Part shown: positions 3,665-58,690 of the stretch, in pieces | Numbering within the stretch: position 1 is the stretch's first letter | How the letters are laid out: the number at the start of each line of letters is the position of its first letter | Assembly (NCBI GenBank): GCA_963818475.1 | Contig: CAWFSF010000001.1 | Location: 279,631-343,630, forward strand | Direction of reading: 5' to 3' | DNA length: 64,000 nt | Origin: Nitrospirota bacterium | GTDB taxonomy: Bacteria; Nitrospirota; UBA9217 | Translations under genes and position numbers: made by a program | Notes under the pieces: model-generated | The model's database searches: none | Told to the model about the DNA's origin: nothing | What the model saw: the letters and a program-made list of their open reading frames with translations, nothing else

Positions 3665-4318
3665 TTATTGATCGGTGAGATGTTTATCAATCATTTTGAG
3701 GCACTGTGCGGCCTTATCGCCTTCCCCGGTCAGGACATAGGACTTTTCACGGTCCTGCCCTATGATCCCGGCCTCCCTCAGGATCTTCAGGTGGAAGAGT
3801 ACTTTCGTGTGGTCCTCGATGGAAAGCTCGCGCGCAAGCTCCATGAGCCGCATAGCTTTTCTGGATACGATCAAACGAATGATCTGCGTGCGAATGGGGT
3901 TCGAGAGCGCGCTCAGGACGGCGTCGAGGTCTTTGCTCCCGCCGCATTCCTGAACACGGGCCTCTTCCAGGACGCGCCTTACGGTGGTAAGGAGTTCATT
4001 GATCTTGAAGGGTTTCGAAATATAGTCATAGGCGCCTCGCTTCATGGCATCCACGGCATTTTCGACGGTCGCAAACGCGGTTATCATGATGACTTTCGAC
4101 CGGGGCGCCACTTTCCTTATTTCCACGAGTGCGTCGGCGCCGCCGCCATTCGGCATGATCATGTCCAGCAGGATCACGTCGTACGCTCCGGGGGCCGCCT
4201 TCATCACGGCTTCGCTGCCCGATGAGGCCTCGTCAATATGATACCCCGCGCCCTTCAATATATCGACAAGGTGGGCTCTGAGCTCGTTATCGTCGTCAAC
4301 GACCAGAATACGCTTCAT
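3665..4318 (-). CDS. Response regulator, REC plus ArsR-like winged HTH
   Basis: ILVVDDD...LLDMIMP...KPF receiver; C-terminal ALSNPIRTQIIRLI...LFHLKILREAGII resembles ArsR. Confidence 0.85.
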   Translation of the reverse strand: MKRILVVDDDNELRAHLVDILKGAGYHIDEASSGSEAVMKAAPGAYDVILLDMIMPNGGGADALVEIRKVAPRSKVIMITAFATVENAVDAMKRGAYDYISKPFKINELLTTVRRVLEEARVQECGGSKDLDAVLSALSNPIRTQIIRLIVSRKAMRLMELARELSIEDHTKVLFHLKILREAGIIGQDREKSYVLTGEGDKAAQCLKMIDKHLTDQ

Positions 4319-4327
4319 AATTATTTC

Positions 4328-5750
4328 TTATTTCCTCTCCGGGATCGTGATCGTAACTATAGTTCCCTTGCCCTTCATGCTGGAGACATCGATCGTTCCG
4401 TGGTGATCTTTTATGATGCCGTAACAGATGGAGAGGCCGAGCCCCGTTCCCGATCCTGGTTCCTTTGTGGTAAAAAAGGGATCGAAGACCCGGGTGAGAT
4501 TTCCTTCCGGGATTCCCGGCCCCGTGTCCTCGATGCGGACGCGAACATCCGCCTTTGAGCGCGAGGTCACGATGGAGATCGTCCCCCCTTTGGGCATTGC
4601 TTCCACCGCATTGGACAGGATGTTGATAATGACCTGCTCCAGCTTGCCCGGCATCACCGAGCACCTCCGGGACAGCGGCCAGATCCTGCCGGATAAGGAT
4701 ATTCCTGAGTTTGTATTGCAGGAGCGTCATCGCTCCCCGAATGATGCTATTCATGTTCACGGGAGAGAATTCCGATTCGCGCTGGCGTGAGAACTGCAAG
4801 AGCTCACGGGCGATCATGGATGCCTTATCGATGTTTCGCTCCACCGCGTCGAGCTTTTCGACGATCTCGCCCCCGCTGGTGACGGCTGCAAATTTCAGTT
4901 TCAGCGTCTGGATCCCCAGCGATGCGTTGGTCAATGGATTATTGATCTCATGCGCGATCCCCGCCGCGAGCTGTCCGAGCGAAGTCAGTTTTTCCGTCTG
5001 AACAAGATGCCTTGTCTGCTGCTCGATCCTCTTGCGCATTTCAATGTTGAAAACGTTCAGCGCCTTGATGATAAAGTAGGTGATAACAATGGCGGTGAGC
5101 CCCCGTAAGAGTTCGATCGGGAAGGGAAGGGGGATGATCGAGAACCGGGTGACAAAAACGCCGGCAAAGACGCCGTAAAATATAAAAGCAACCCCGGCGT
5201 ACCATAAATGGCGCGAGACAGACCGGCTCAAAACCTTTATTTCGTGTGAATACGCCATCAGCCCGTAAGCGGTGAGCGATGCTCCGGTAAGACAAAAAAT
5301 CAAGCGCGCGCTCTTCTCCGTTTGCCCCAGGAACCTCATGGTCATGGTGGAGTCGCGCGACGTTATGAAGGCAACCCATGCAAGGACGAGTACCGCGGGG
5401 ATAAAATTGGACCAGAGCGAACGTTTATTGCGGGTACTGAGCGTCAGGGCGAGGCCGAACTGAAGCAAAAATAAAAAGGACAGGACCAGAACGACAAGGG
5501 AAACGAGTTTCGCATTGAGGAGCTCCTCCATCGAGAGATGGGCACCCTCGATCAACGGGTACAATGCCAACAGTTCGTGCAAGCCATGCGTGAGGCCGAA
5601 CATGCCGAGCAGCCAGAGGCTGTCGGCAAGCTTTAAGTCGCTGCCCTTCATGTCCTTGACGAAGATGGCGAAGCTCAGGAAGAGGAACGCGGACCCATAG
5701 AGGAAATAGATAAAATATTCCGTCGGGATATTTATGAAATAATTAAGCAT
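4328..5750 (-). CDS. Membrane sensor histidine kinase (one frameshift near 4650, probably a sequencing error)
   Basis: Multi-TM N-terminus, H-box GIAHEINNPL; HATPase N/G/F boxes lie in the second frame; removing one G from GCCGGGCAAG restores DAGKLEQV. Confidence 0.88.
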
Positions 5751-5960
5751 GAAGTTCCAGCCCCGGCAAGTCGCAGGGTTGAATTTGAAGATGACTCATA
5801 AAGAATTATACGAATGAAAAACAAGGAATGCAAGTCTTATCGGGTCGTTACCGGGTCTTCCGAAGGTTATTCCCTGTCCGGTCGGCTGCTGAAAACCTTA
5901 AAACGTCATTGCGAGGAACGACATCTGCAGCGAGGTGATCCAGGAATGCGCGCGGACAGG

Positions 5961-8528
5961 CTACCGTGCGTCAAGGACGTCCCGTATCTTCTGCGACAGG
6001 TCCCTGAGCGAAGCCGGCTTGGTGATGAACTGCATGCCTTCCTCAAGCACGCCCCTGCTGTTGATCACGTCGGCGGTATACCCGCTCATAAAAAGGGCCT
6101 TCACGCCGGGCCGCATTCTCCTGACCTCGTCATAGACCTGTTTTCCATTTTTTTTCGGCATGATCACATCGAGGATCAGCAGGTCTATCCGGTCCTTATG
6201 GTCCGTGAACAGCTCGACCGCTTCCTTCCCGTCCGCGGCCATGATGACCGTGTACCCCAGGTGCTCCAGCATTGTCCTGGTGATCCGCCTCACGCCTTCA
6301 TCGTCGTCCGTGACCAGGACCGTTTCCGTGCCGCCTCTGAGCAGGGCGGGCCGGGCGGGCGCTGCCTGCTCTGTCCTGGCGGTATCGAGCGGGAAATAGA
6401 GCGTGAAGGTCGTGCCTTTGCCCGGCTCGCTCTCGCAATCAATATAGCCGTTGTGCTGTTTGACGATGCCGTATACGATCGAAAGCCCCAGCCCGGTGCC
6501 CTTCCCCGTCTCCTTGGTGGTGAAGAAGGGCTCGAAGACCCTCCGCTTCGTCCGTGCGTCCATGCCGGAGCCGGAATCTTTGACCGTAACGAGCACATAG
6601 GTCCCGGCCTTGCCATACCCGTTCTGCGCGATGTACTGGTCGTCGATCTCGGCAACACTCGTCGTTATCAGCAGCGTCCCACCGTGCGGCATGGCGTCCC
6701 GGGCGTTCACCGCCAGGTTCATCAGGACCTGCTCCATCTGGCCCGCATCGGCCAGGATGGTCAGGTCCGCGTCGGAAAGCCTTGTTCTCAGCTCGATCTC
6801 TTCGCCGATCAGCCGATGCAGCATATTCAACACAACCCGGATGCTTTCATTGATATCGACCGGCCTGGCGCTCGTGATCTGCTTCCTGCTGAAGGCAAGC
6901 AGGTTCTGGGTCAGGTTCGCCGCCCGCCTCGATGCGGCAAGGATCTGGTCCAGAAAACCGCGTGTCTGCTCATTCTCCGCGATGGTCATACCGAGCAGGT
7001 CGGTATAGCCGATGATGCTCGTCAGGATATTATTGAAGTCGTGGGCGATCCCGCCGGTCAGGGTCCCGACCGCCTCCAGTTTCTGCGCATGCCGCAGCTG
7101 TTCTTCCAGTTTTTTATGCTCCGTGATGTCGCGCCCCACCCCCAGCAGGGCCATGACCTCTCCGTCCGCGCTCTTCAGGGGCACGGCCCGGGTCTCTACC
7201 CAGCGGCGCGTCCCCTTCAGGCCGATGAACTCGAATTCCAGGTTCCCCGATCCTCCCTGGAAGACACTGTCGGTAAGGGCCTGCATGCTCGCCGCATACT
7301 CGGGGACCACCAGCGGGTAGATCGATTTCCCCGCCACCTGCTCAAGCGAGTCTGCCTCGATCATGCGAAGGCCAGCCGGGTTCATCTCGAGGAGCGTCCC
7401 GTCCGCCGCGAGCAGCGTTACGCAATCCTGCTCGGCATCGATAAGGGTCCTGAGCTTGCTCTCGCTCCGGGCCAGGTCCTCTTCGATGCGTTTGCGTTCG
7501 GGCACGTCCTGCAGGGTCTCGATAACGACGAGGAGCTCGCCCTCGCTGTTGTAGATCGGTGCGGCATCGAAAACGATATACCGGTTCTTTCCGTTGATGT
7601 TCAGGTACCAGCCTTCGGCGTGCACCCCGTTCTCAACGAGGGACGAGCGCGAGTTCTTGCTGTACAGCGTGGAAAGTTCGTCATAGGAGCCGTCGACGAC
7701 GATATCGGCCAGCGTCGGGCGTTTCTCGTCATAAAAGGGCATCCAGTGGTCATCGGTGCCGATCACGTCGCGGGCGGGAAGGCCTGTCAGTTCTTCGCAG
7801 GCCTTGTTCCAGATAACGACCTTGTGGTGGGGGTCGATCACGAAGGTCGCCACAGCGGAGTTCTGCACCAGGTTCTCGGCAAAGGCCTTCTGGTTCTCGA
7901 GAAGCGCTTCCATATGCTTTCGCTGCGTGATATCCCGCACCACGTGGATCAGGCCGACCATCTGGTTGTCGTTGTTGAACCGGGGGATGGCCCTCGTCTC
8001 GACATACATGTTCAGGTGAGGTTCGAACGATTCCGCAGCGACCGGCCGGGCCAGGGCGATGCTCCGGCAGCTCGGACAGTCCGCGGGAGGGCAGTCCGTG
8101 CCGTGAAAAAGCTTGAAGCATTTTGCCTTCCCCTTGGCGTCTGCAGACAGGTCAAGCCGCTCCCGTGCCGCACGGTTCGCGCGAATGATCGTAAAGTCCT
8201 TGTCATGGATGGTGATCATGTCGGTGATCGTGTTGAAAGTGTCTTCCCAGTCATGGGCGGATTGCGCGTTCATTTCCTCGGCGCGCGCTTTTTCCCTGAG
8301 CGCGGCCTTCTTCAGCGGCCTGACAACGATGCGCCAGAAGACCGGGAGGATCACGAGGGCCAGGACAACGGCATCAAGGAGCGCGGTGGGCAATGCAGGG
8401 GCTTGGGGAAATATCGCGGTGAGCAGGAGCATGATGATCAGCTCCGCGAAAAAAATGGTCGCGATCATCACGCCGGCAAGGCGCAAGGGTGATGAGAAGA
8501 AGCCTTCGCGGCGTTCAACGGTCTTCAT
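5961..8528 (-). CDS. Hybrid PAS sensor histidine kinase/receiver
   Basis: 2 TM, three PAS domains, GGIAHDFNNIL H-box, HATPase, C-terminal REC. Confidence 0.92.
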   Translation of the reverse strand: MKTVERREGFFSSPLRLAGVMIATIFFAELIIMLLLTAIFPQAPALPTALLDAVVLALVILPVFWRIVVRPLKKAALREKARAEEMNAQSAHDWEDTFNTITDMITIHDKDFTIIRANRAARERLDLSADAKGKAKCFKLFHGTDCPPADCPSCRSIALARPVAAESFEPHLNMYVETRAIPRFNNDNQMVGLIHVVRDITQRKHMEALLENQKAFAENLVQNSAVATFVIDPHHKVVIWNKACEELTGLPARDVIGTDDHWMPFYDEKRPTLADIVVDGSYDELSTLYSKNSRSSLVENGVHAEGWYLNINGKNRYIVFDAAPIYNSEGELLVVIETLQDVPERKRIEEDLARSESKLRTLIDAEQDCVTLLAADGTLLEMNPAGLRMIEADSLEQVAGKSIYPLVVPEYAASMQALTDSVFQGGSGNLEFEFIGLKGTRRWVETRAVPLKSADGEVMALLGVGRDITEHKKLEEQLRHAQKLEAVGTLTGGIAHDFNNILTSIIGYTDLLGMTIAENEQTRGFLDQILAASRRAANLTQNLLAFSRKQITSARPVDINESIRVVLNMLHRLIGEEIELRTRLSDADLTILADAGQMEQVLMNLAVNARDAMPHGGTLLITTSVAEIDDQYIAQNGYGKAGTYVLVTVKDSGSGMDARTKRRVFEPFFTTKETGKGTGLGLSIVYGIVKQHNGYIDCESEPGKGTTFTLYFPLDTARTEQAAPARPALLRGGTETVLVTDDDEGVRRITRTMLEHLGYTVIMAADGKEAVELFTDHKDRIDLLILDVIMPKKNGKQVYDEVRRMRPGVKALFMSGYTADVINSRGVLEEGMQFITKPASLRDLSQKIRDVLDAR

Positions 8529-29017: not shown

Positions 29018-29257
29018 AATTCCTCCTGAAACAATGGATTACAGCTCACAAGGACATATAAAAAATGAAGAACTGATCTGTGCAGATCCTGTGATTAATA
29101 ACTCATCTTTAAAATTCCTTGAGCAACAGCACTTATCCCAGTGTCCGGGCTCACCGCTTGAATTGTTGCTTCATTGTCCTAGCGACCAGTTTATGATAAC
29201 CAGAATTTAAGGAAATAGGGTGACACTCCAAAGTTAGGTTTTGAAAGGAGTGTCATC

Positions 29258-30820
29258 ATGAAACCAGAAAAGAGTATACAGCAAGGCGAGAGGAAAAGGA
29301 AGTTCCCGAAGCGAAGCAAGAGGTATGGATCCGATTTCAAGCTTCAAGTAGTCAAGAAATTTGTAGAAGAGAGCATCCCGGTTTCGGTGATTCTTCAGGA
29401 ATCCGGGTTGAGCAGTGGGACGGTAGGGCGTTGGGTGCGCGCTTATCGTGCTGACGGTGAAGCCGGACTCGCCACGCACTACCGGGGCAAGGGCCGCAGC
29501 CTTCCCTCCCCGGTGAAGCAGAAAATCGTCGAACTCAAAAAAGCCAACCCTCCCTTCGGCATCAAGCGCATATCACAGGTTTTAAAGAGAGCATTCTTCC
29601 TTTCCGCCAGCCCCGAGACCGTCAGAAAGACACTTCACGAATCATCCCTGATAACCGCCCCACCCAAGAAGCGGCAGCACAACATCACCCGTCCCCGGTT
29701 TTTCGAACGAACAGCGCCGAACCAGCTTTGGCAGACGGATATCTTCACGTTCCGCCTTGGCGGCCACTATGCGTACCTGATCGGCTACATCGACGATTAC
29801 TCCCGCTATGTAACCGGGCTCGAGCTTTTCAGAAGCCAGACAGGGCAAAACGTTATCGAGATATACCGGCGGGCGGCCGCCGAGTACAACCCGCCGAAAG
29901 AGATGCTTACGGACAATGGGCGACAGTATACGAGCTGGCACGGGAAGAGCCGTTTCGAAGCGGAGCTCAAGAAAGACAAGATCCACCACATCAAATCGCG
30001 GCCTCACCACCCGATGACGCTGGGCAAGATCGAGCGGTTCTGGAAAACCATCTACCTGGAGTTCCTGAGCCGGGCTCAGTTCGCGAGCTTCGAGGACGCG
30101 GCGGAACGGATACGGCAGTGGGTGAAATACTACAACCACAAACGGCCGCACCAGGGTATCGGCGGCCTGTGCCCCGCGGACCGGTACTTCGAGATCCAGA
30201 GCGAGCTTAAGCAGACAATCGAGCAAGGCATCCAGGAGAACCTCCTGGAGATGGCGCTCCGGGGCAAACCGCGTCTGCCGTTCTACATGGTGGGCCGCAT
30301 GGAGGGTCAGTCAGTGGTGCTGCGGGCAGAAAAGGGCAAACTGCGGCTGTCGGTTGACGACGAGGAAGATGACACCACGCAGGAAGTAGTCTACAATCTA
30401 AACGAAGAAGGAGCCGGCCATGGAGAAGGCGGAGAAGATAAAAAGCGAGAAGAAGCGGCAACCGACGAACCACGGGGCGATGGAGAAATGCCGGGCGGTG
30501 CTGGCGGTGTGGACGGAGCGTCGGAGGCCGGCGGAGATATGCCGGGAGCTGGGGATACCGTGGATGGTGCTGGCGCAGTGGCAGAAGCGGGCGATGGAGG
30601 GGATGCTTCAGGCGCTGGAACCCCGGGTGAGACTGGACAAGGGGCCGGCGCTCTCCCCGCGCCTCCAGTCAATGCTGGAGAAAAAGCGCCTGACGCTTCC
30701 GGCCTCGATCCGGCTGGAAAAGACGCTGTCGAAGGCGCAGGAAGCAAGGAAAGCGGAGGCGCCGTCAAAGGATCAGAAGCCCTCCGGCGAAGCCCCGCAG
30801 ACAGCGGGACGCAAGGCTGA
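29258..30820 (+). CDS. IS481-like DDE transposase with long C-terminal extension
   Basis: N-terminal HTHs; WQTD, TDNG and GKIER triad; YNHKRPHQG. Confidence 0.9.
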   Translation: MKPEKSIQQGERKRKFPKRSKRYGSDFKLQVVKKFVEESIPVSVILQESGLSSGTVGRWVRAYRADGEAGLATHYRGKGRSLPSPVKQKIVELKKANPPFGIKRISQVLKRAFFLSASPETVRKTLHESSLITAPPKKRQHNITRPRFFERTAPNQLWQTDIFTFRLGGHYAYLIGYIDDYSRYVTGLELFRSQTGQNVIEIYRRAAAEYNPPKEMLTDNGRQYTSWHGKSRFEAELKKDKIHHIKSRPHHPMTLGKIERFWKTIYLEFLSRAQFASFEDAAERIRQWVKYYNHKRPHQGIGGLCPADRYFEIQSELKQTIEQGIQENLLEMALRGKPRLPFYMVGRMEGQSVVLRAEKGKLRLSVDDEEDDTTQEVVYNLNEEGAGHGEGGEDKKREEAATDEPRGDGEMPGGAGGVDGASEAGGDMPGAGDTVDGAGAVAEAGDGGDASGAGTPGETGQGAGALPAPPVNAGEKAPDASGLDPAGKDAVEGAGSKESGGAVKGSEALRRSPADSGTQG

Positions 30821-30830
30821 TAACCCGTAA
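30420..30830 (+). CDS. HTH protein overlapping the transposase tail in the +1 frame
   Basis: AGGAG RBS; RAVLAV..AEICRELGI..WQKRAMEGMLQALE, similar to the next ORF. Confidence 0.7.
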   Translation: MEKAEKIKSEKKRQPTNHGAMEKCRAVLAVWTERRRPAEICRELGIPWMVLAQWQKRAMEGMLQALEPRVRLDKGPALSPRLQSMLEKKRLTLPASIRLEKTLSKAQEARKAEAPSKDQKPSGEAPQTAGRKADNP

Positions 30831-30847
30831 CGGAAAGGCCGGTGCGT

Positions 30848-31225
30848 ATGAGCGACTCAGCAGACAAAGAGCTTGCCCTAAAACGAGCCGCGGTGATCTT
30901 TGCGGTCAGGAGCGGCCAGATCACAGCCGAGGAAGGCGCGCGGAGACTCGGCGTGTCCCGGAAGACCTACTATGAGTGGGAGAAACGGGCATTACAGGCG
31001 ATGACGGAGGCTCTGGAGGACAAGACCCCGGGAAGGCCGAGTATACCGCAGGACGAGGAGAAGCAGCGTTTGCAAGACGAGATCATCGAGCTTCAGAACA
31101 AGCTCTTTGTCGCTGAGAAGACCGTGGAAGTGCGGGACATGCTGCATGCCTATGAGCTGCATAACGCCAAAACAAAGAAAGGCATGTCCGAGGAAAAAAA
31201 ACGAAAGCAAAGGAAGAAACCATAA
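30848..31225 (+). CDS. HTH protein (IS3 OrfA-like)
   Basis: AEEGARRLGVSRKTYYEW HTH, PGRP, coiled coil. Confidence 0.8.
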   Translation: MSDSADKELALKRAAVIFAVRSGQITAEEGARRLGVSRKTYYEWEKRALQAMTEALEDKTPGRPSIPQDEEKQRLQDEIIELQNKLFVAEKTVEVRDMLHAYELHNAKTKKGMSEEKKRKQRKKP

Positions 31226-31230
31226 CCCGT

Positions 31231-32277
31231 ATGCTTGCTGTTATTGATCAGATGAGGGAGAAGACCTGTATGTCCTACCAGGCGATCTGCAGCGCCGTGA
31301 GGCTGCCCTACCCGAGCTTTATACGGTGGCGTCGAAGGCAGAAGAACGCCACGCCTCTCGTGCGGCAGCCGGGGCCTCCCAAGGTCAAGCCGCCGGATCT
31401 TGAGAAACTTGGACTGGATATAGCAGGGTTGTCTCACGGGCAAGACCGGACGCAGGGCACGGGCGCACTCTACGGTCGCTACGCATCCTCCGTATCAAGG
31501 CGTGAGCTGCAGCGCATGATAGAAATGGCACGGCATGATCTCAATACGTTACACCGTCAGAATCTGCGGCGGATCAGCTGGAACGTGCCGAACGTCGCAT
31601 GGTCCATGGACCCCTGCGAATACGACGGACGAGATGCGGCCGGAGCCAAAGTGTACCTGAACCATATGCAGGACCTTGCGTCCCGCTACAAGTTCACACC
31701 CATGACAGGAGACGTTCCCTGCGGCGAAGAGATATCCGGCTATCTCGCGGCGACCTTCGACCGCTTCGGGGCGCCCCTATTCCTCAAACGGGACAATGGC
31801 GGCAATCTGAACCATGCGGCGATCAATGCCGTGCTCGAGGACTACTTCGTCCTGCCCTTGAACAGCCCGGTCCATTATCCACCTTACAACGGGGCGATCG
31901 AAGAGGCGCAAACCGAGCTGAAAAACGGGCTTGCTGCAAAGCTCGCGTATAAGACCAGCTGCCAGCGCGAACACATGGAAGCGTATGCATCGACGGTTGA
32001 ACATGACCTCAACCACCAACCTCGTCCTTGCCTACACGGCAGCAACGCCTGCCAAGTGTACTTCACGAACAAAAGAACGGTTACCAAATGGGAAAGGAGG
32101 GATGCCTATGCTTGGATGACAAACTTGCAGGATGATATACTATGCAGTAAAGGAGGTGTTCACCCGCAAGCGGCCTGGCGGATCGCCGTCGAGGCCTGGC
32201 TGAGGATGAAAGGGCTTATTACAGTTACGATCAACGGAAAAGTGTCACCCAATTTTCTCTCAAATTTTTATCATTAA
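31231..32277 (+). CDS. Second DDE transposase/integrase (rve; IS3 OrfB-like)
   Basis: WSMD, KRDNG and NGAIEE triad; NHQPRPCL. Confidence 0.85.
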   Translation: MLAVIDQMREKTCMSYQAICSAVRLPYPSFIRWRRRQKNATPLVRQPGPPKVKPPDLEKLGLDIAGLSHGQDRTQGTGALYGRYASSVSRRELQRMIEMARHDLNTLHRQNLRRISWNVPNVAWSMDPCEYDGRDAAGAKVYLNHMQDLASRYKFTPMTGDVPCGEEISGYLAATFDRFGAPLFLKRDNGGNLNHAAINAVLEDYFVLPLNSPVHYPPYNGAIEEAQTELKNGLAAKLAYKTSCQREHMEAYASTVEHDLNHQPRPCLHGSNACQVYFTNKRTVTKWERRDAYAWMTNLQDDILCSKGGVHPQAAWRIAVEAWLRMKGLITVTINGKVSPNFLSNFYH

Positions 32278-32292
32278 CTGCTGGCGTGCACA

Positions 32293-34349
32293 GTCACATC
32301 GCCCAGAATTCGAGACGTCAATGCAGGCGCTGTCTGGTTATATCTACTCGATATTTCCGCAGCAGTGAGTGACCGGTTGTAAATTACGATTTCGTCCATC
32401 AACCCTCCGTAGGGACCAGAAAAAGCGTTTCCGAAACTGCTGGAAGGGTATACATGTGTTCGTAAACTTGTCTGGCCGGTTTTAACATAGGCGCCGTTTA
32501 GATACAGTTTCGGAGTTTTATTTTCATATACAACGACGATATGATTCCAGCCGGATAAATTGCCCGCGTAGACAAGAAGCGATTGCACATAATCGCCCCC
32601 ATGCTCGAACACGCTGATGCCAGTGGTTCCTATTGACAAACCTGCCCCTGCATCAGTGGCTCCGCCACTTGCCGGCACTACAGCATATCTTTGCCCTGAC
32701 ACACCTGAGTAAGACGGATAAGAGTTAGATTCACCCGTAAACTCGATGGTCAATGTCGGAGAGGTCCAAAGTTCTATGGTAAAGTTATCCGGTGCTGTGA
32801 CCTGAAGAGAGTTGGGTGTAGATACTGCGTCGTCAATTCCGTCGAACATGCCGGAATAGCTGCCAAAATGAGCATCAGAACTAAATGCTGGATTAAGCGA
32901 AGGTACTCCGTGATTAGCGTACCCGGAAGAGTCGTCCCAATTCCCATCCATGTGCCAAAGGCCTATAATCCCGGGATCAATCGTTATGCTAATCGATGCG
33001 GTATTGGTCGCAGCGTCAACAGCAGAAGCTGTTATGGTGTTATTACCTGCGATGATCCCTGATATTGTGCAGGTCCATGATGTTGCCGTGGGATAGGATA
33101 CAGGGCCAACCGAAGCTGAAGTATTTATCGACAGCGACACGACACTATTCGCTTCCATCGTTCCAGTAAAAACTTGACTATTGCTGCTTACAGGTGAGTT
33201 TAAGGGATCTATTGTGATAAATGTCTGATTGTCGATTGTAAACGTTTTCTGATCAAAACCTAAGTTTCCCGCAGCATCTGTTGAGTCTACGCGTACTACA
33301 TGAACACCATCTGAAAGCGTATCGAGTATGGTGCCCGATACTTTTGACACAATTATTCCGTCAACTGTTACGACTGCATTCCCTTCACTATTGGTATATA
33401 AGAGAAGCGGATTTCTCTCCTTTGTTGTGGAAGCAACGGGTGAAGAAATGATAACCACAGGACCGACAGTATCAAGAATGATGTCACCCTGGATCATGGT
33501 ATTGCTCGTGTTCCCGGCGCTGTCCTTGTATCTGGCGTACACCGTCTTGGTGCCGTCGCCTGTTGAGAGCGTCCAGGTAGTAGTGGTAGCGTAGCTTCCT
33601 AACGCTGACCAGGTGCTGTTGTCGTTGCTGAACTGCATCTGGGAGACGCAGCTCGTTGCGTCTGTGGCTGTTAGGGTCAAGGTGACTGAAGTGCCTGTTG
33701 TATACGTTGCTCCGCTGCTGATCAGTACCGTTCCCAAGGGAGGCGTCGTGTCGACAGTGAACGTTACTGCAGAAAACACAGGACCTCCGAAACTATCCGT
33801 TGTGTCAATGCGCACTACATGCGCGCCATCGGCCAATGGGTCAAGCGTACTTCCTGAAGCCTTTGATACTGCCGTACCATCAACCTTAACAATCGCTGTT
33901 CCACAGCATGCTGAGTAAATTAACTGAGGAGCATTGTTTTTTGTCAACACGGCAGTGGGTGAAGAAATGGTTACTAGGGGGGAAGATATTATCTTGAAAT
34001 CGCCAATCGTCGTAGTACCGGTAGTGGCTGTGAGCACCCCATTGATGTAGGTGCTTCCGATAACTGAGGAGAAATCTGTATTATAACCGCCTTGAAAGGT
34101 AACGGTAACATCACGATTGATAGTGAAACCGTCAAATGTTGTATTTTTGACCTTTATAATATCGGCATTACTGGCATTTTGATAAGCTTCCGAAAGTGTT
34201 TGATAATATCTTGGCGGATTAGTTGTTGAAATCTGGACAGGGGGCAGGTCTGCTGCTGCGGCCCAGCGGATGAACCCTAAAATAATCACGAGAACAGAAC
34301 CGAGGAGTACTAAAAAGAAACGATTCGACTTCACCTGTGACCTCTTCAT
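32293..34349 (-). CDS. Secreted Ig-like repeat plus LamG domain protein, truncated by the IS
   Basis: Signal peptide; Big-like repeats; WHMDG..WNHIVVVY..LYLNG..MDEIVIYNRSLT LamG; the frame runs into the IS right end. Confidence 0.82.
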
Positions 34350-34743
34350 TTCGGCTATTTCCTCCATCAGTCCTCCTGGTCGTTTTTCTAATCATGAACC
34401 TACCCGATGCACCCTCTTCCCGGACAGAGGAACGGATGCATTCTTTTATACGATGCGGATAATAATATAGCTGCATCATTCTGTCCAGAAAATAAACGAG
34501 TTAATTTCAGGTTGTCAAATTATAATTTGAGGTGCACAGTTAGCTGCATAGTGCATTTACGAACGAACCTTTATGTCACAAGCAACGGAGTTAGCTGCAA
34601 ATTAAGGATTTGATGCCCTAAGTGGGAAGTTTGCGCATCTTGCGCATGACGGCTTAGATGTCTTGAGCCCACTTTTGGAGGCAGGTGAACGTGTTTGTTC
34701 GTGAGGATGCAGGAGTAGATGGAGCAGCGATGAAACGATGGTG

Positions 34744-57460: not shown

Positions 57461-58690
57461 TTACATGCACATTCCGTTGCCCGCGCTCTCCATAGCTAAA
57501 CAGTCAGTATAGTTTAGCGTCACTCCATTTACGGTCACCGCGATCGGGGTCCCGAACACGATCGTGGCATTGTTCACCTGGATCGTTCCTGAATTCGGAC
57601 ACTCATCGAGCTCACTGTCAAAAGTAAGCGGCGTGCTCTCCGCCGTGATGAAAGTAACCGTGCCTGCCGCGCAATCGGCCGGGCTGAATACCGTCACTAT
57701 GCTGCCGTTCAACCATTCGTCATACGTGAGGTCGGCATACGTCTTTACCTTGAACTGCATATTCCTGGGAGTTATGGTAAGGCCGAATGTATCAGAGCCG
57801 CTGGTAACGGACAGATTATAGCTTCCGTTCAGGGTTGCCGTGTTCGTGACGACCGGGCCCGCAGCCGTCTCGTGCGTCCAATTGTTCGTCAAGTTCGACA
57901 TGGTAAGGGACATCGATTCGGACGTATTGACATAGTTTAGGTTCGCATTAATGGAGGCCGATCCCGAGGTCACGTTGTCGGTGACGGCGAAGGTCCCGTT
58001 CATGGTGCCGGTTTCTTCGAGAGTCGTATAGGCGTCTGAATATGTTTTAGCGGTAAAATTGGTTGCAGTAACTTGGGCGATCGTGGAAGAACCGTCTCTC
58101 ATCTGCTTCCAGTACAGGCTCATGCTGCCGTCCTCTTCGGAATAAGTGATATCATAGTCCTTGCAATGTGCAAAGGTCAGCGTAACCGTTGCTTCGGTGT
58201 AGGTGGCGGCGCTTGCGAGATCGGAGTTGTCCGTTCCCACTATTGTCACGTTCCCGCCATTGGTGCAGGTCGTGCTAAAACTGACCGTCTTTTGCATTGC
58301 CTTGGCCCGACGGGCCTTCATGGTCGCGTTCTTTACAGAAGCCGACTGCAGCATGCCGAGCATTTTGTCAACTGCTGTCTTAAGGCGGGGATCAATGGCA
58401 GCAAGGGAGTTCTTATTCGAGGTCTTTTGTTTGGGCGCCGCATACCCTGCCTCGCCCGCCGCCTCCGATGCCAAACTTCTTGACGCCATGCTCGTCGAGT
58501 CCAGCATCATCGCGGTTCCCGCCGCTTCGCTGGAAGCGCTGGCAGCCTGATCAGGGTTCGAATAGTTGTATGGACCGGGGTCGCTCGCGCTTCCCCCTCC
58601 GCCTCCGCCGCAGGAAATGATAAAACCGAAAACAAAGGTTGCGGCTAAGAGCAGACTTACGAACTTCATAAACGTTCCCTTCTTACTCAT
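57461..58690 (-). CDS. Beta-rich lipoprotein of unknown function
   Basis: FIIS-CGGGGG lipobox; Thr/Ser/Asn-rich with paired Cys. Confidence 0.75.
   Translation of the reverse strand: MSKKGTFMKFVSLLLAATFVFGFIISCGGGGGGSASDPGPYNYSNPDQAASASSEAAGTAMMLDSTSMASRSLASEAAGEAGYAAPKQKTSNKNSLAAIDPRLKTAVDKMLGMLQSASVKNATMKARRAKAMQKTVSFSTTCTNGGNVTIVGTDNSDLASAATYTEATVTLTFAHCKDYDITYSEEDGSMSLYWKQMRDGSSTIAQVTATNFTAKTYSDAYTTLEETGTMNGTFAVTDNVTSGSASINANLNYVNTSESMSLTMSNLTNNWTHETAAGPVVTNTATLNGSYNLSVTSGSDTFGLTITPRNMQFKVKTYADLTYDEWLNGSIVTVFSPADCAAGTVTFITAESTPLTFDSELDECPNSGTIQVNNATIVFGTPIAVTVNGVTLNYTDCLAMESAGNGMCM

Follow-up and report, generated by a model that had tools for sequence, protein, structure and literature searches.

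Within the 64,000-nucleotide stretch of a Nitrospirota contig analyzed here (CAWFSF010000001.1, assembly GCA_963818475.1; the window), positions 29175 to 32292 form a single insertion sequence (IS) of 3118 bp. Its TGT...ACA inverted repeats of about 53 bp enclose four co-oriented genes, O1 to O4. The outer two encode different DDE transposases, and the inner two encode small helix-turn-helix (HTH) proteins. An earlier note on this DNA had described one pair of imperfect TGT...ACA repeats of about 50 bp. Complementary arms at both ends bear this out, pairing 29175-29199 with 32268-32292 (25 nt, 76% complementary) and 29210-29227 with 32241-32258 (18 nt, 89%).

The same note had proposed a search for other full-length copies with the same ends, and such copies exist. 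A second copy in the same genome (G000:C6:2034774-2037894, minus strand) is identical over exactly 29175-32292, and its flanks differ immediately outside, indicating that the element moved recently and as a whole. Five further genomes carry 8, 5, 4, 2 and 2 copies, all with the same TGT...ACA ends. Copies within a genome are 99.5 to 100% identical, except for one at 95% (L019), and element lengths in the family range from 2955 to 3253 bp. Comparison with four public runs gave the element boundaries and one IS-free allele. The public runs, among which no RNA run is listed, are assembled contigs, each with at most 0.18 of the sampled words, and cannot show rare junctions, circles or starts. The left boundary at 29175 is also marked in them by contig ends and loose ends, and one public contig departs from the window exactly at 32293, which marks the right boundary. 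A tblastn search of the PLSDB plasmids with O4 gave zero matches. The window copy is thus an intact, recently active member of a widespread family of insertion sequences of about 3.0 to 3.25 kb.

We characterized the proteins by comparison with domain and family models. O1 has an rve core (E 2.8e-20) and aligns over its full length with the NCBIfam IS481 model, at model positions 2 to 284 of 284; its score of 219.7 bits lies just below the curated cutoff of 224 and makes it a borderline member of that family. A conserved C-terminal domain extends to about residue 387 and is followed by an acidic, low-complexity tail of 133 residues rich in Gly, Ala, Glu and Asp. The match of O4 to rve is weak (E 2.5e-5); it scores 41.4 bits on the IS481 model, and no family model comes near its threshold. 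None of the proteins reaches the cutoff of 160 bits on the IS3 model, with 155 bits for O1, 34.5 for O4 and 26.1 for O3. Searches of the four proteins against Pfam and NCBIfam returned only HTH and rve domains, with no TnsA-type endonuclease or TnsC ATPase. For O4, an AlphaFold model built from a 30-sequence alignment (mean predicted local distance difference test score [pLDDT] of 84) resembles the structures of retroviral integrases and of IstA, the transposase of IS21, and an O4 profile matches the integrase core of mouse mammary tumor virus (E 1.5e-9).

Both catalytic triads reported from the window sequence (WQTD/TDNG/KIER and WSMD/RDNG/AIEE) are complete and conserved across 27 elements. 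Residues D161, D219 and E259 of O1 are present in 27 of 27 family members, as are D188 and E224 of O4, and D127 of O4 is found in 26, the exception being an X that results from an ambiguous base. The ratios of nonsynonymous to synonymous substitution rates are low over 13 pairs (0.06 to 0.15 for O1, 0.10 to 0.32 for O2, 0.04 to 0.25 for O3, and 0.11 to 0.21 for O4), indicating that all four genes are under purifying selection. BLASTP detects no similarity between O1 and O4. In a profile alignment with hhalign, their HTH and core regions superimpose and the catalytic residues line up (probability 83%, 21% identity). On these sequence comparisons, O1 and O4 are ancient paralogues, that is, anciently diverged rve-type DDE enzymes. 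The two HTH proteins O2 and O3 are likewise paralogous, as had been noticed, with 32% identity over 72 residues (E 2e-7). A prediction of a complex between the O1 core and O4 gave a score of 0.00 (mark, 0.32), which says nothing either way about their association.

The element had been taken for a single unit without internal inverted repeats, rather than a nested IS, and our results agree with that view. The two conserved repeat blocks occur at the ends of the element only, with one match per end, and a search with both blocks inside the element found no internal ends or relics of inner repeats. Thus, the element has no inner ends. Elsewhere in the window, the blocks match only at 57516 (2 mismatches) and 58872 (3 mismatches).

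To follow the linkage of the four genes we used loci found by an O4 back-translation scan, which identified 77 of them, mostly in Nitrospirota and Desulfobacterota. Single loci were found in genomes titled Verrucomicrobia, Victivallales, PVC (Planctomycetes-Verrucomicrobia-Chlamydiae) group, Elusimicrobia and Chromatiaceae. We considered as judgeable the 47 loci in which O4 is nearly complete and preceded by 2100 nt or more of sequence; upstream sequence was too short in 23 others, and O4 was partial in 7 (six fragments, and L067, which is cut by a contig end). The order O1-O2-O3-O4 is found in 42 of the 47, from Nitrospirota, Desulfobacterota, PVC-group bacteria and a Chromatiaceae genome. 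The remaining five are L034 and L036, interrupted by another IS; L051 and L059, truncated from the 5′ side inside O1; and L072, which has no O1. In L034 and L036, the invaders of O1 are other IS481/IS3-like elements with 25 to 27% identity to O1.

Searches seeded with O1 gave a similar picture. Among 301 Nitrospirota genomes, 13 matches were obtained at E ≤ 1e-60, all with at least 88% identity and all belonging to this two-transposase family. Sixteen loci were found in 401 Desulfobacterota genomes. Those with an O1 of at least 58% identity all carry O3/O4 downstream (10/10), those at 40 to 44% all carry an O4-like DDE gene downstream (3/3), and the three at 32 to 35% are solo IS481-like genes, the only solo cases. 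The proposed check on co-occurrence thus finds a downstream DDE partner in all 13 Desulfobacterota loci with an O1 of at least 40% identity. A solitary module bounded by its own ends, an arrangement that would speak for a nested element, was seen neither among the 77 O4-seeded loci nor among the 13 Nitrospirota matches and 16 Desulfobacterota loci seeded with O1.

In the three loci of the distant 40 to 44% subfamily (L098, L099 and L100), the two DDE genes flank only one HTH gene. Their O1 proteins are 40 to 44% identical to the Desulfobacterota query and their O4 proteins 26 to 34% identical to the O4 queries, and L099 occupies a whole contig of 2718 bp. The acidic tail of O1 again overlaps the HTH gene, and a lysine/A-rich stretch lies 5′ of the second DDE gene. 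The presence of one HTH gene in this subfamily indicates that the ancestral unit consisted of an IS481-like gene and an orfA/orfB pair, O2 being a later duplicate of O3. Furthermore, the pairwise distances of O1 and O4 co-vary across the 27 elements (Mantel r of 0.926), with 0 of 2000 permutations as high. With the missing inner ends and a four-gene unit that recurs across phyla, we conclude with high confidence that these elements form a single conserved IS family with two transposases, and that their architecture is no accident of nesting or chimerism.

The two ends of the element are related without being equivalent, an asymmetry that had been guessed from the window alone. Both share T.ATGA at positions 17 to 22 and AAAT.GGGTRACACT at about 40 to 54, and positions 4 to 16 are specific to one end. 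Over positions 4 to 16, the identity between the two main clades is 68% for the left tips and 24% for the right tips, and it is 40% between the left and right tips of one element. Within a clade, the tips are 84 to 85% (left) and 83 to 85% (right) identical, and over positions 17 to 24 the identity between the left and right ends of the same element is 86%. O4 terminates within the right repeat (stop codon at 32275-32277), as stated in the earlier note. A C-terminal K-V-x-P-x-F motif of O4 is encoded by the inner block of that repeat (32241-32277), and it may be conserved for reasons of DNA rather than protein sequence.

The description of the genes as four tightly packed co-oriented open reading frames needs revision in one respect. 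All four are on the plus strand. O1 and O2 are not simply adjacent, as the O1 frame runs 400 nt over O2 (30421-30820), which is in the +1 frame. The gene set is better read as an IS481-like O1 with a tail over O2, an IS3-like orfA/orfAB module formed by O3 and O4, and one extra HTH gene. The O1/O2 overlap is a general feature of the family, since in 53 of 54 loci the O1 frame remains open for 341 to 731 nt after O2 has begun, with O2 always in the +1 frame. In the Desulfobacterales clade (L044 to L062), the O1 frame extends over O2 as well as O3, up to the start of O4. Among the 120 best homologues of O1, lengths range from 498 to 522 residues. In a synonymous-shuffle test of the O1/O2 overlap, stop codons were depleted at P ≤ 0.05 in 11 of 31 region tests, each with only 0.5 to 4 stops expected; the overlap of the window element itself gave P 0.54, with two terminal stops counted and about 2.5 expected. 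Synonymous divergence of O2 is below that of its neighbors in most pairs. Dual coding or translational coupling is therefore a probable role of the O1 frame over O2, as far as can be judged from these patterns.

All of the 30 family members examined have a run of 7 to 9 A at the O3/O4 junction. In the window element, the O4 frame is shifted by -1 from that of O3 and is open from 31165, across the A8 run. In the Desulfobacterales clade, the A-run immediately precedes the stop codon of O3, and the shift to O4 is +1. No stimulatory RNA structure was found 3′ of the A-run (z +1.5). An IS3-family element makes its transposase by transcriptional slippage on a run of nine A, according to PMC6211511. 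By its layout, the O3-O4 pair is an IS3-type orfA/orfAB pair, in which recoding at the A-run would yield a fusion protein, and O4 is probably made mainly as an O3-O4 fusion. Another candidate control element is a hairpin at 29219-29257 (-19 kcal/mol, z -3.57), as stable as which only 2 of 200 shuffled sequences fold; it covers the Shine-Dalgarno sequence of O1 and might be regulatory. The coordinates of all parts are collected in Table 1.

Table 1. Parts of the two-transposase element (positions in the window)
Feature	Position	Strand	Basis or remark
Left terminal inverted repeat (IRL)	29175..29227	+	Repeat arms; second genomic copy; public contig/loose ends at 29175
IRL, left-end-specific tip TGTCCTA...CCAG	29175-29190	+	Tip comparison
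IRL, shared block T.ATGA	29191-29198	+	Common to both ends
IRL, shared block AAAT.GGGTGACACT	29213-29227	+	Common to both ends
11-bp RNA hairpin, putative regulatory role	29219..29257	+	5′ arm is the inverted-repeat block; 3′ arm spans O1 Shine-Dalgarno to start codon
O1, IS481-like DDE transposase, 520 aa	29258..30820	+	HTH domains, rve core, D161/D219/E259
Promoter-like site ATGACA-17-TACAAT (10/12)	30369..30397	+	Just 5′ of O2; 3 sites versus 1.4 expected in the region, a hint only
O2, small HTH protein, 136 aa	30420..30830	+	Own GGAG ribosome-binding site; +1 frame relative to O1
O3, OrfA-like HTH protein (HTH_28 / HTH_Tnp_1), 127 aa	30842..31225	+	Probable start ATG 30848
A8 run, putative recoding site	31194..31201	+	GAA AAA AAA CGA in the O3 frame gives the heptamer A_AAA_AAA (31195-31201)
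O4, divergent rve-type DDE transposase, 348 aa	31231..32277	+	Own N-terminal HTH; D127/D188/E224
Right terminal inverted repeat (IRR), clade-specific tip TGTGCACGC...	32241..32292	-	Has the two inner blocks of IRL; covers the last 12 O4 codons and the stop

We then looked at the insertion sites. The search for target duplications at other copies, which had been suggested along with the description of the element, gave a negative result: at none of 33 distinct insertions with both ends defined do direct repeats of more than 3 nt adjoin the element, at tested lengths up to 60 nt. This range includes the duplication classes of 6, 15 and 25 bp that PMC10045372 gives for IS481 and IS1202. Local alignments of the 100-nt flanks score as mismatched pairs do. 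Exchange of flanks between copies does not explain the missing duplications, because only one within-genome pair, L006 and L007, shares at least 4 nt, out of 66 ordered pairs.

Judged from domain content, where this is informative, targets are not just divided in two by the element. L068 cuts a gene for a sigma-54 activator at model position 29 of the ATPase domain, and the missing 5′ half is not on the far side of the element. L006 adjoins a serine-recombinase gene without its catalytic domain, and L069 adjoins an IS110-type gene without its N-terminal domain, of which no second copy was found in the same genome. For the window copy, a public contig matches the right flank at 119 of 120 letters, and past 32293 it contains neither the element nor, by eye, the left flank of the window. 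Searches for an empty site gave no match with the 500-nt flanks of the window copy in 30 related genomes or with the L006 flank in 63 genomes of the same family. Either insertion is coupled to loss or rearrangement of the target, or later events removed the duplications. Both later loss of target duplications, by recombination between copies and adjacent deletions in other IS, and IS movement without duplication, in one case by an IS481-family element in Pseudomonas fluorescens, are documented in PMC11708052.

Other observations at the insertion sites concern single loci. A gene for a repeat-rich protein of 697 residues (32274-34367, minus strand) runs into the right end of the window element. 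In record 12 of public run X2, the same gene extends past 32293 with no element there, which makes truncation of the window gene probable. The DNA to the left of L012 (793-2837) is repetitive too: another genome of the set, G031, carries at least 10 copies of this sequence of about 2 kb, at 81 to 88% identity. Nine nucleotides at the left end of L033, in Nitrospirae, are the same as those at the right end of L061, in Victivallales (TGAAAGTCT). About 0.004 matches of this type would be expected among 1056 pairs, and this one could mean that the element prefers certain targets or that its termini extend a few bases further. We also considered a palindromic target, as the repeats seemed to extend into the flanks; a permutation test showed no excess (P 0.39) and the idea was dropped.

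Taken together, these data lead us to favor, with moderate confidence, a transposition machinery composed of two anciently diverged rve-type DDE transposases acting within one pair of ends. A transpososome that contains both enzymes is plausible, and we think it somewhat probable that both are required for movement. The second transposase would be the O3-O4 fusion, produced by -1 ribosomal frameshifting or transcriptional slippage at the A-run, or by a +1 shift in the Desulfobacterales clade, and neither it nor O1 would suffice without the other. The small HTH proteins and the HTH domains of the transposases would bind the shared inner blocks, and the catalytic parts of O1 and O3-O4 would act on different tips, one kind each. 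This assignment of one end to each enzyme is a tentative proposal, which we make with some doubt. As the rates of change run in parallel, O1 might act at the left tip, which is conserved family-wide, and the faster-evolving O4 at the clade-specific right tip. An asymmetric chemistry, rather than later recombination, would then be the reason why insertions leave no duplication and tend to sit at breaks in target continuity. The most complete version of the model is a new transposition pathway that has the slowly evolving O1 processing the left tip and O3-O4 the right one, with strand transfers that, for want of a symmetric dimer, are not a fixed few base pairs apart and thereby give duplication-free insertions that often replace or rearrange the target, and with the O1 frame coupling the production of the partners in cis; we regard it as rather unlikely to hold in every part.

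Several points weigh against a joint action of the two enzymes. In known families, transposases of the IS481 and IS3 types need no help to mobilize the elements that encode them. Two independent partial copies, L058 (1190-2968) and L072 (about 4254-6070), keep O2, O3, O4 and the right end without O1 and the left end, so that one module could persist without the other. They start 21 nt and about 50 nt 5′ of O2, respectively, have no left repeat, and were not seen multiplied. Every truncated copy that we saw is without its left side, but the set of loci was seeded with O4. L058 shares a contig of about 9.3 kb with the full copy L057; the two are inverted, with their right ends facing each other, and the 3.4-kb segment between them holds another IS481/IS3-like gene. 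Most loci come from metagenome-assembled genomes, in which assembly may wrongly join repeats of 3 kb. O1 was placed at the left tip and O4 at the right one from parallel rates only, and the O1 and O4 distances are themselves correlated; both the interaction of the two enzymes and the joint need for them are proposals.

The element might instead descend from an ancient fusion of an IS481-like and an IS3-like element whose inner ends were lost, with a single working transposase and the other protein kept as a regulator, for instance an inhibitor that binds the ends, or as a rider. The partial copies that carry only O2 to O4 fit this history, and as O1 and O4 share an HTH-plus-core layout, either one could recognize the shared blocks. 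Both types of module are, moreover, self-sufficient in known IS families (for the features of IS481, see PMC10045372). However, a rider or a DNA-binding regulator needs no catalytic residues, and the D/D/E triad is invariant in both enzymes even though O4 has diverged to 34 to 40% identity. Such a history also has to contend with purifying selection on both enzymes, with a linkage that holds down to 40% identity of O1 and in the subfamily with one HTH gene, and with inner ends that left no relic; we consider it improbable. Two active, co-inherited nucleases would also be expected if labor were divided by step or strand, one enzyme cutting and transferring the 3′ ends and the other cutting the second strand, as a TnsA-like part with a DDE fold, or one generating an excised or circular intermediate and the other integrating it. 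This scheme could accommodate the missing duplications and the target breaks if integration differs from the usual coupled attack. By itself, however, it leaves unexplained why end-specific tips accompany shared inner blocks, and no intermediate was seen in the public runs, which as assembled contigs are unable to show rare junctions. We judge it quite improbable.

The last alternative concerns the insertion sites rather than the enzymes. The absence of duplications might be secondary, an ordinary short duplication, perhaps of 6 bp, having been separated by recombination, adjacent deletions or assembly errors. The left flank of L006 and the right flank of L007 share the 6 nt CTTATT, which could be a split 6-bp duplication of the length usual for IS481 and thus also weighs against an asymmetric chemistry. 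The genes cut at the boundary in L006, L068 and L069 without their other half on the far side are consistent with such a loss, as are the public contig that leaves the right flank at 32293 into sequence unlike, by eye, the left flank of the window, and the precedents in PMC11708052. Nevertheless, none of the 33 insertions keeps a duplication despite the recent origin of the copies (99.5 to 100% identical, and one at 95%), and swapped flanks should match between copies of one genome, which they do in one pair only. We find a secondary loss unlikely on balance, and retain asymmetric processing by O1 and O3-O4 as the tentative explanation.

How does this family relate to known elements? Like IS481 transposases, O1 is a single-ORF (open reading frame) enzyme with HTH and rve DDE domains, which aligns end to end with the IS481 model (NF033577). 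IS481 elements carry one transposase ORF without a frameshift and measure about 1 to 1.3 kb. The window element, in contrast, has a length of 3.1 kb, four genes and a second DDE enzyme, and its O1 is extended by a further conserved C-terminal domain and by a long tail that overlaps the next gene. The orfA/orfAB organization of IS911 and IS3 is the counterpart of the O3-O4 module, and the TG...CA termini of the IS3 family are shared as well. However, O4 scores far below the IS3 cutoff, the O3-O4 module of this family was not found alone with its own ends, and a second orfA-like gene, O2, is present. O3 and O4 also follow the layout of IS1447, the IS3-family element studied in PMC6211511: an HTH gene, then an rve DDE gene in another frame, and an A-rich slippery run where the two meet. 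The TGT start of the termini recurs in the IS481-related Banshee elements, as mentioned in PMC10045372. That paper assigns target duplications of 2 to 15 bp, mostly 6 bp, to IS481 members and of 3 to 5 bp to the IS3 family, and the window family differs from both in having none.

The nearest functional analogy would be Tn7, in which two different nucleases from one element act on the same ends, as O1 and O3-O4 could do here. Tn7 has TGT...ACA termini, asymmetric ends and a 5-bp duplication, and the first two features are found in the window element. The differences are substantial, since TnsA has a restriction-endonuclease fold whereas the two enzymes of the window element are both rve DDE proteins, which we propose to cooperate, and since the element has no TnsC-like ATPase or target selector.

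Our literature search, whose scope did not extend to ISfinder/TnCentral and paper supplements, found no description of an IS with two DDE transposases, and we provisionally regard the family as undescribed. In the source annotations, O4 is called "hypothetical protein" or "InsO family," O1 is called "transposase" or "DDE-type integrase/transposase/recombinase," and none bears an element name derived from ISfinder. With O4 labeled in this way, IS annotation misses such elements or splits them in two. The family is abundant: the O4 search retrieved 2086 protein clusters at E ≤ 0.001 among 4066 candidates, in at least five named groups.

To our knowledge, insertion sequences are understood as having one transposase per element, sometimes with a noncatalytic helper, and Tn7 is the only well-studied heteromeric transposase, in which a DDE enzyme is paired with a protein of a different fold. 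Two active-looking DDE enzymes that stay linked over deep divergence offer a natural system in which to ask whether one transpososome can be built with two DDE enzymes. The family also combines a conserved putative recoding site, a long overlapping frame and duplication-free insertion in one small, easily cloned element.

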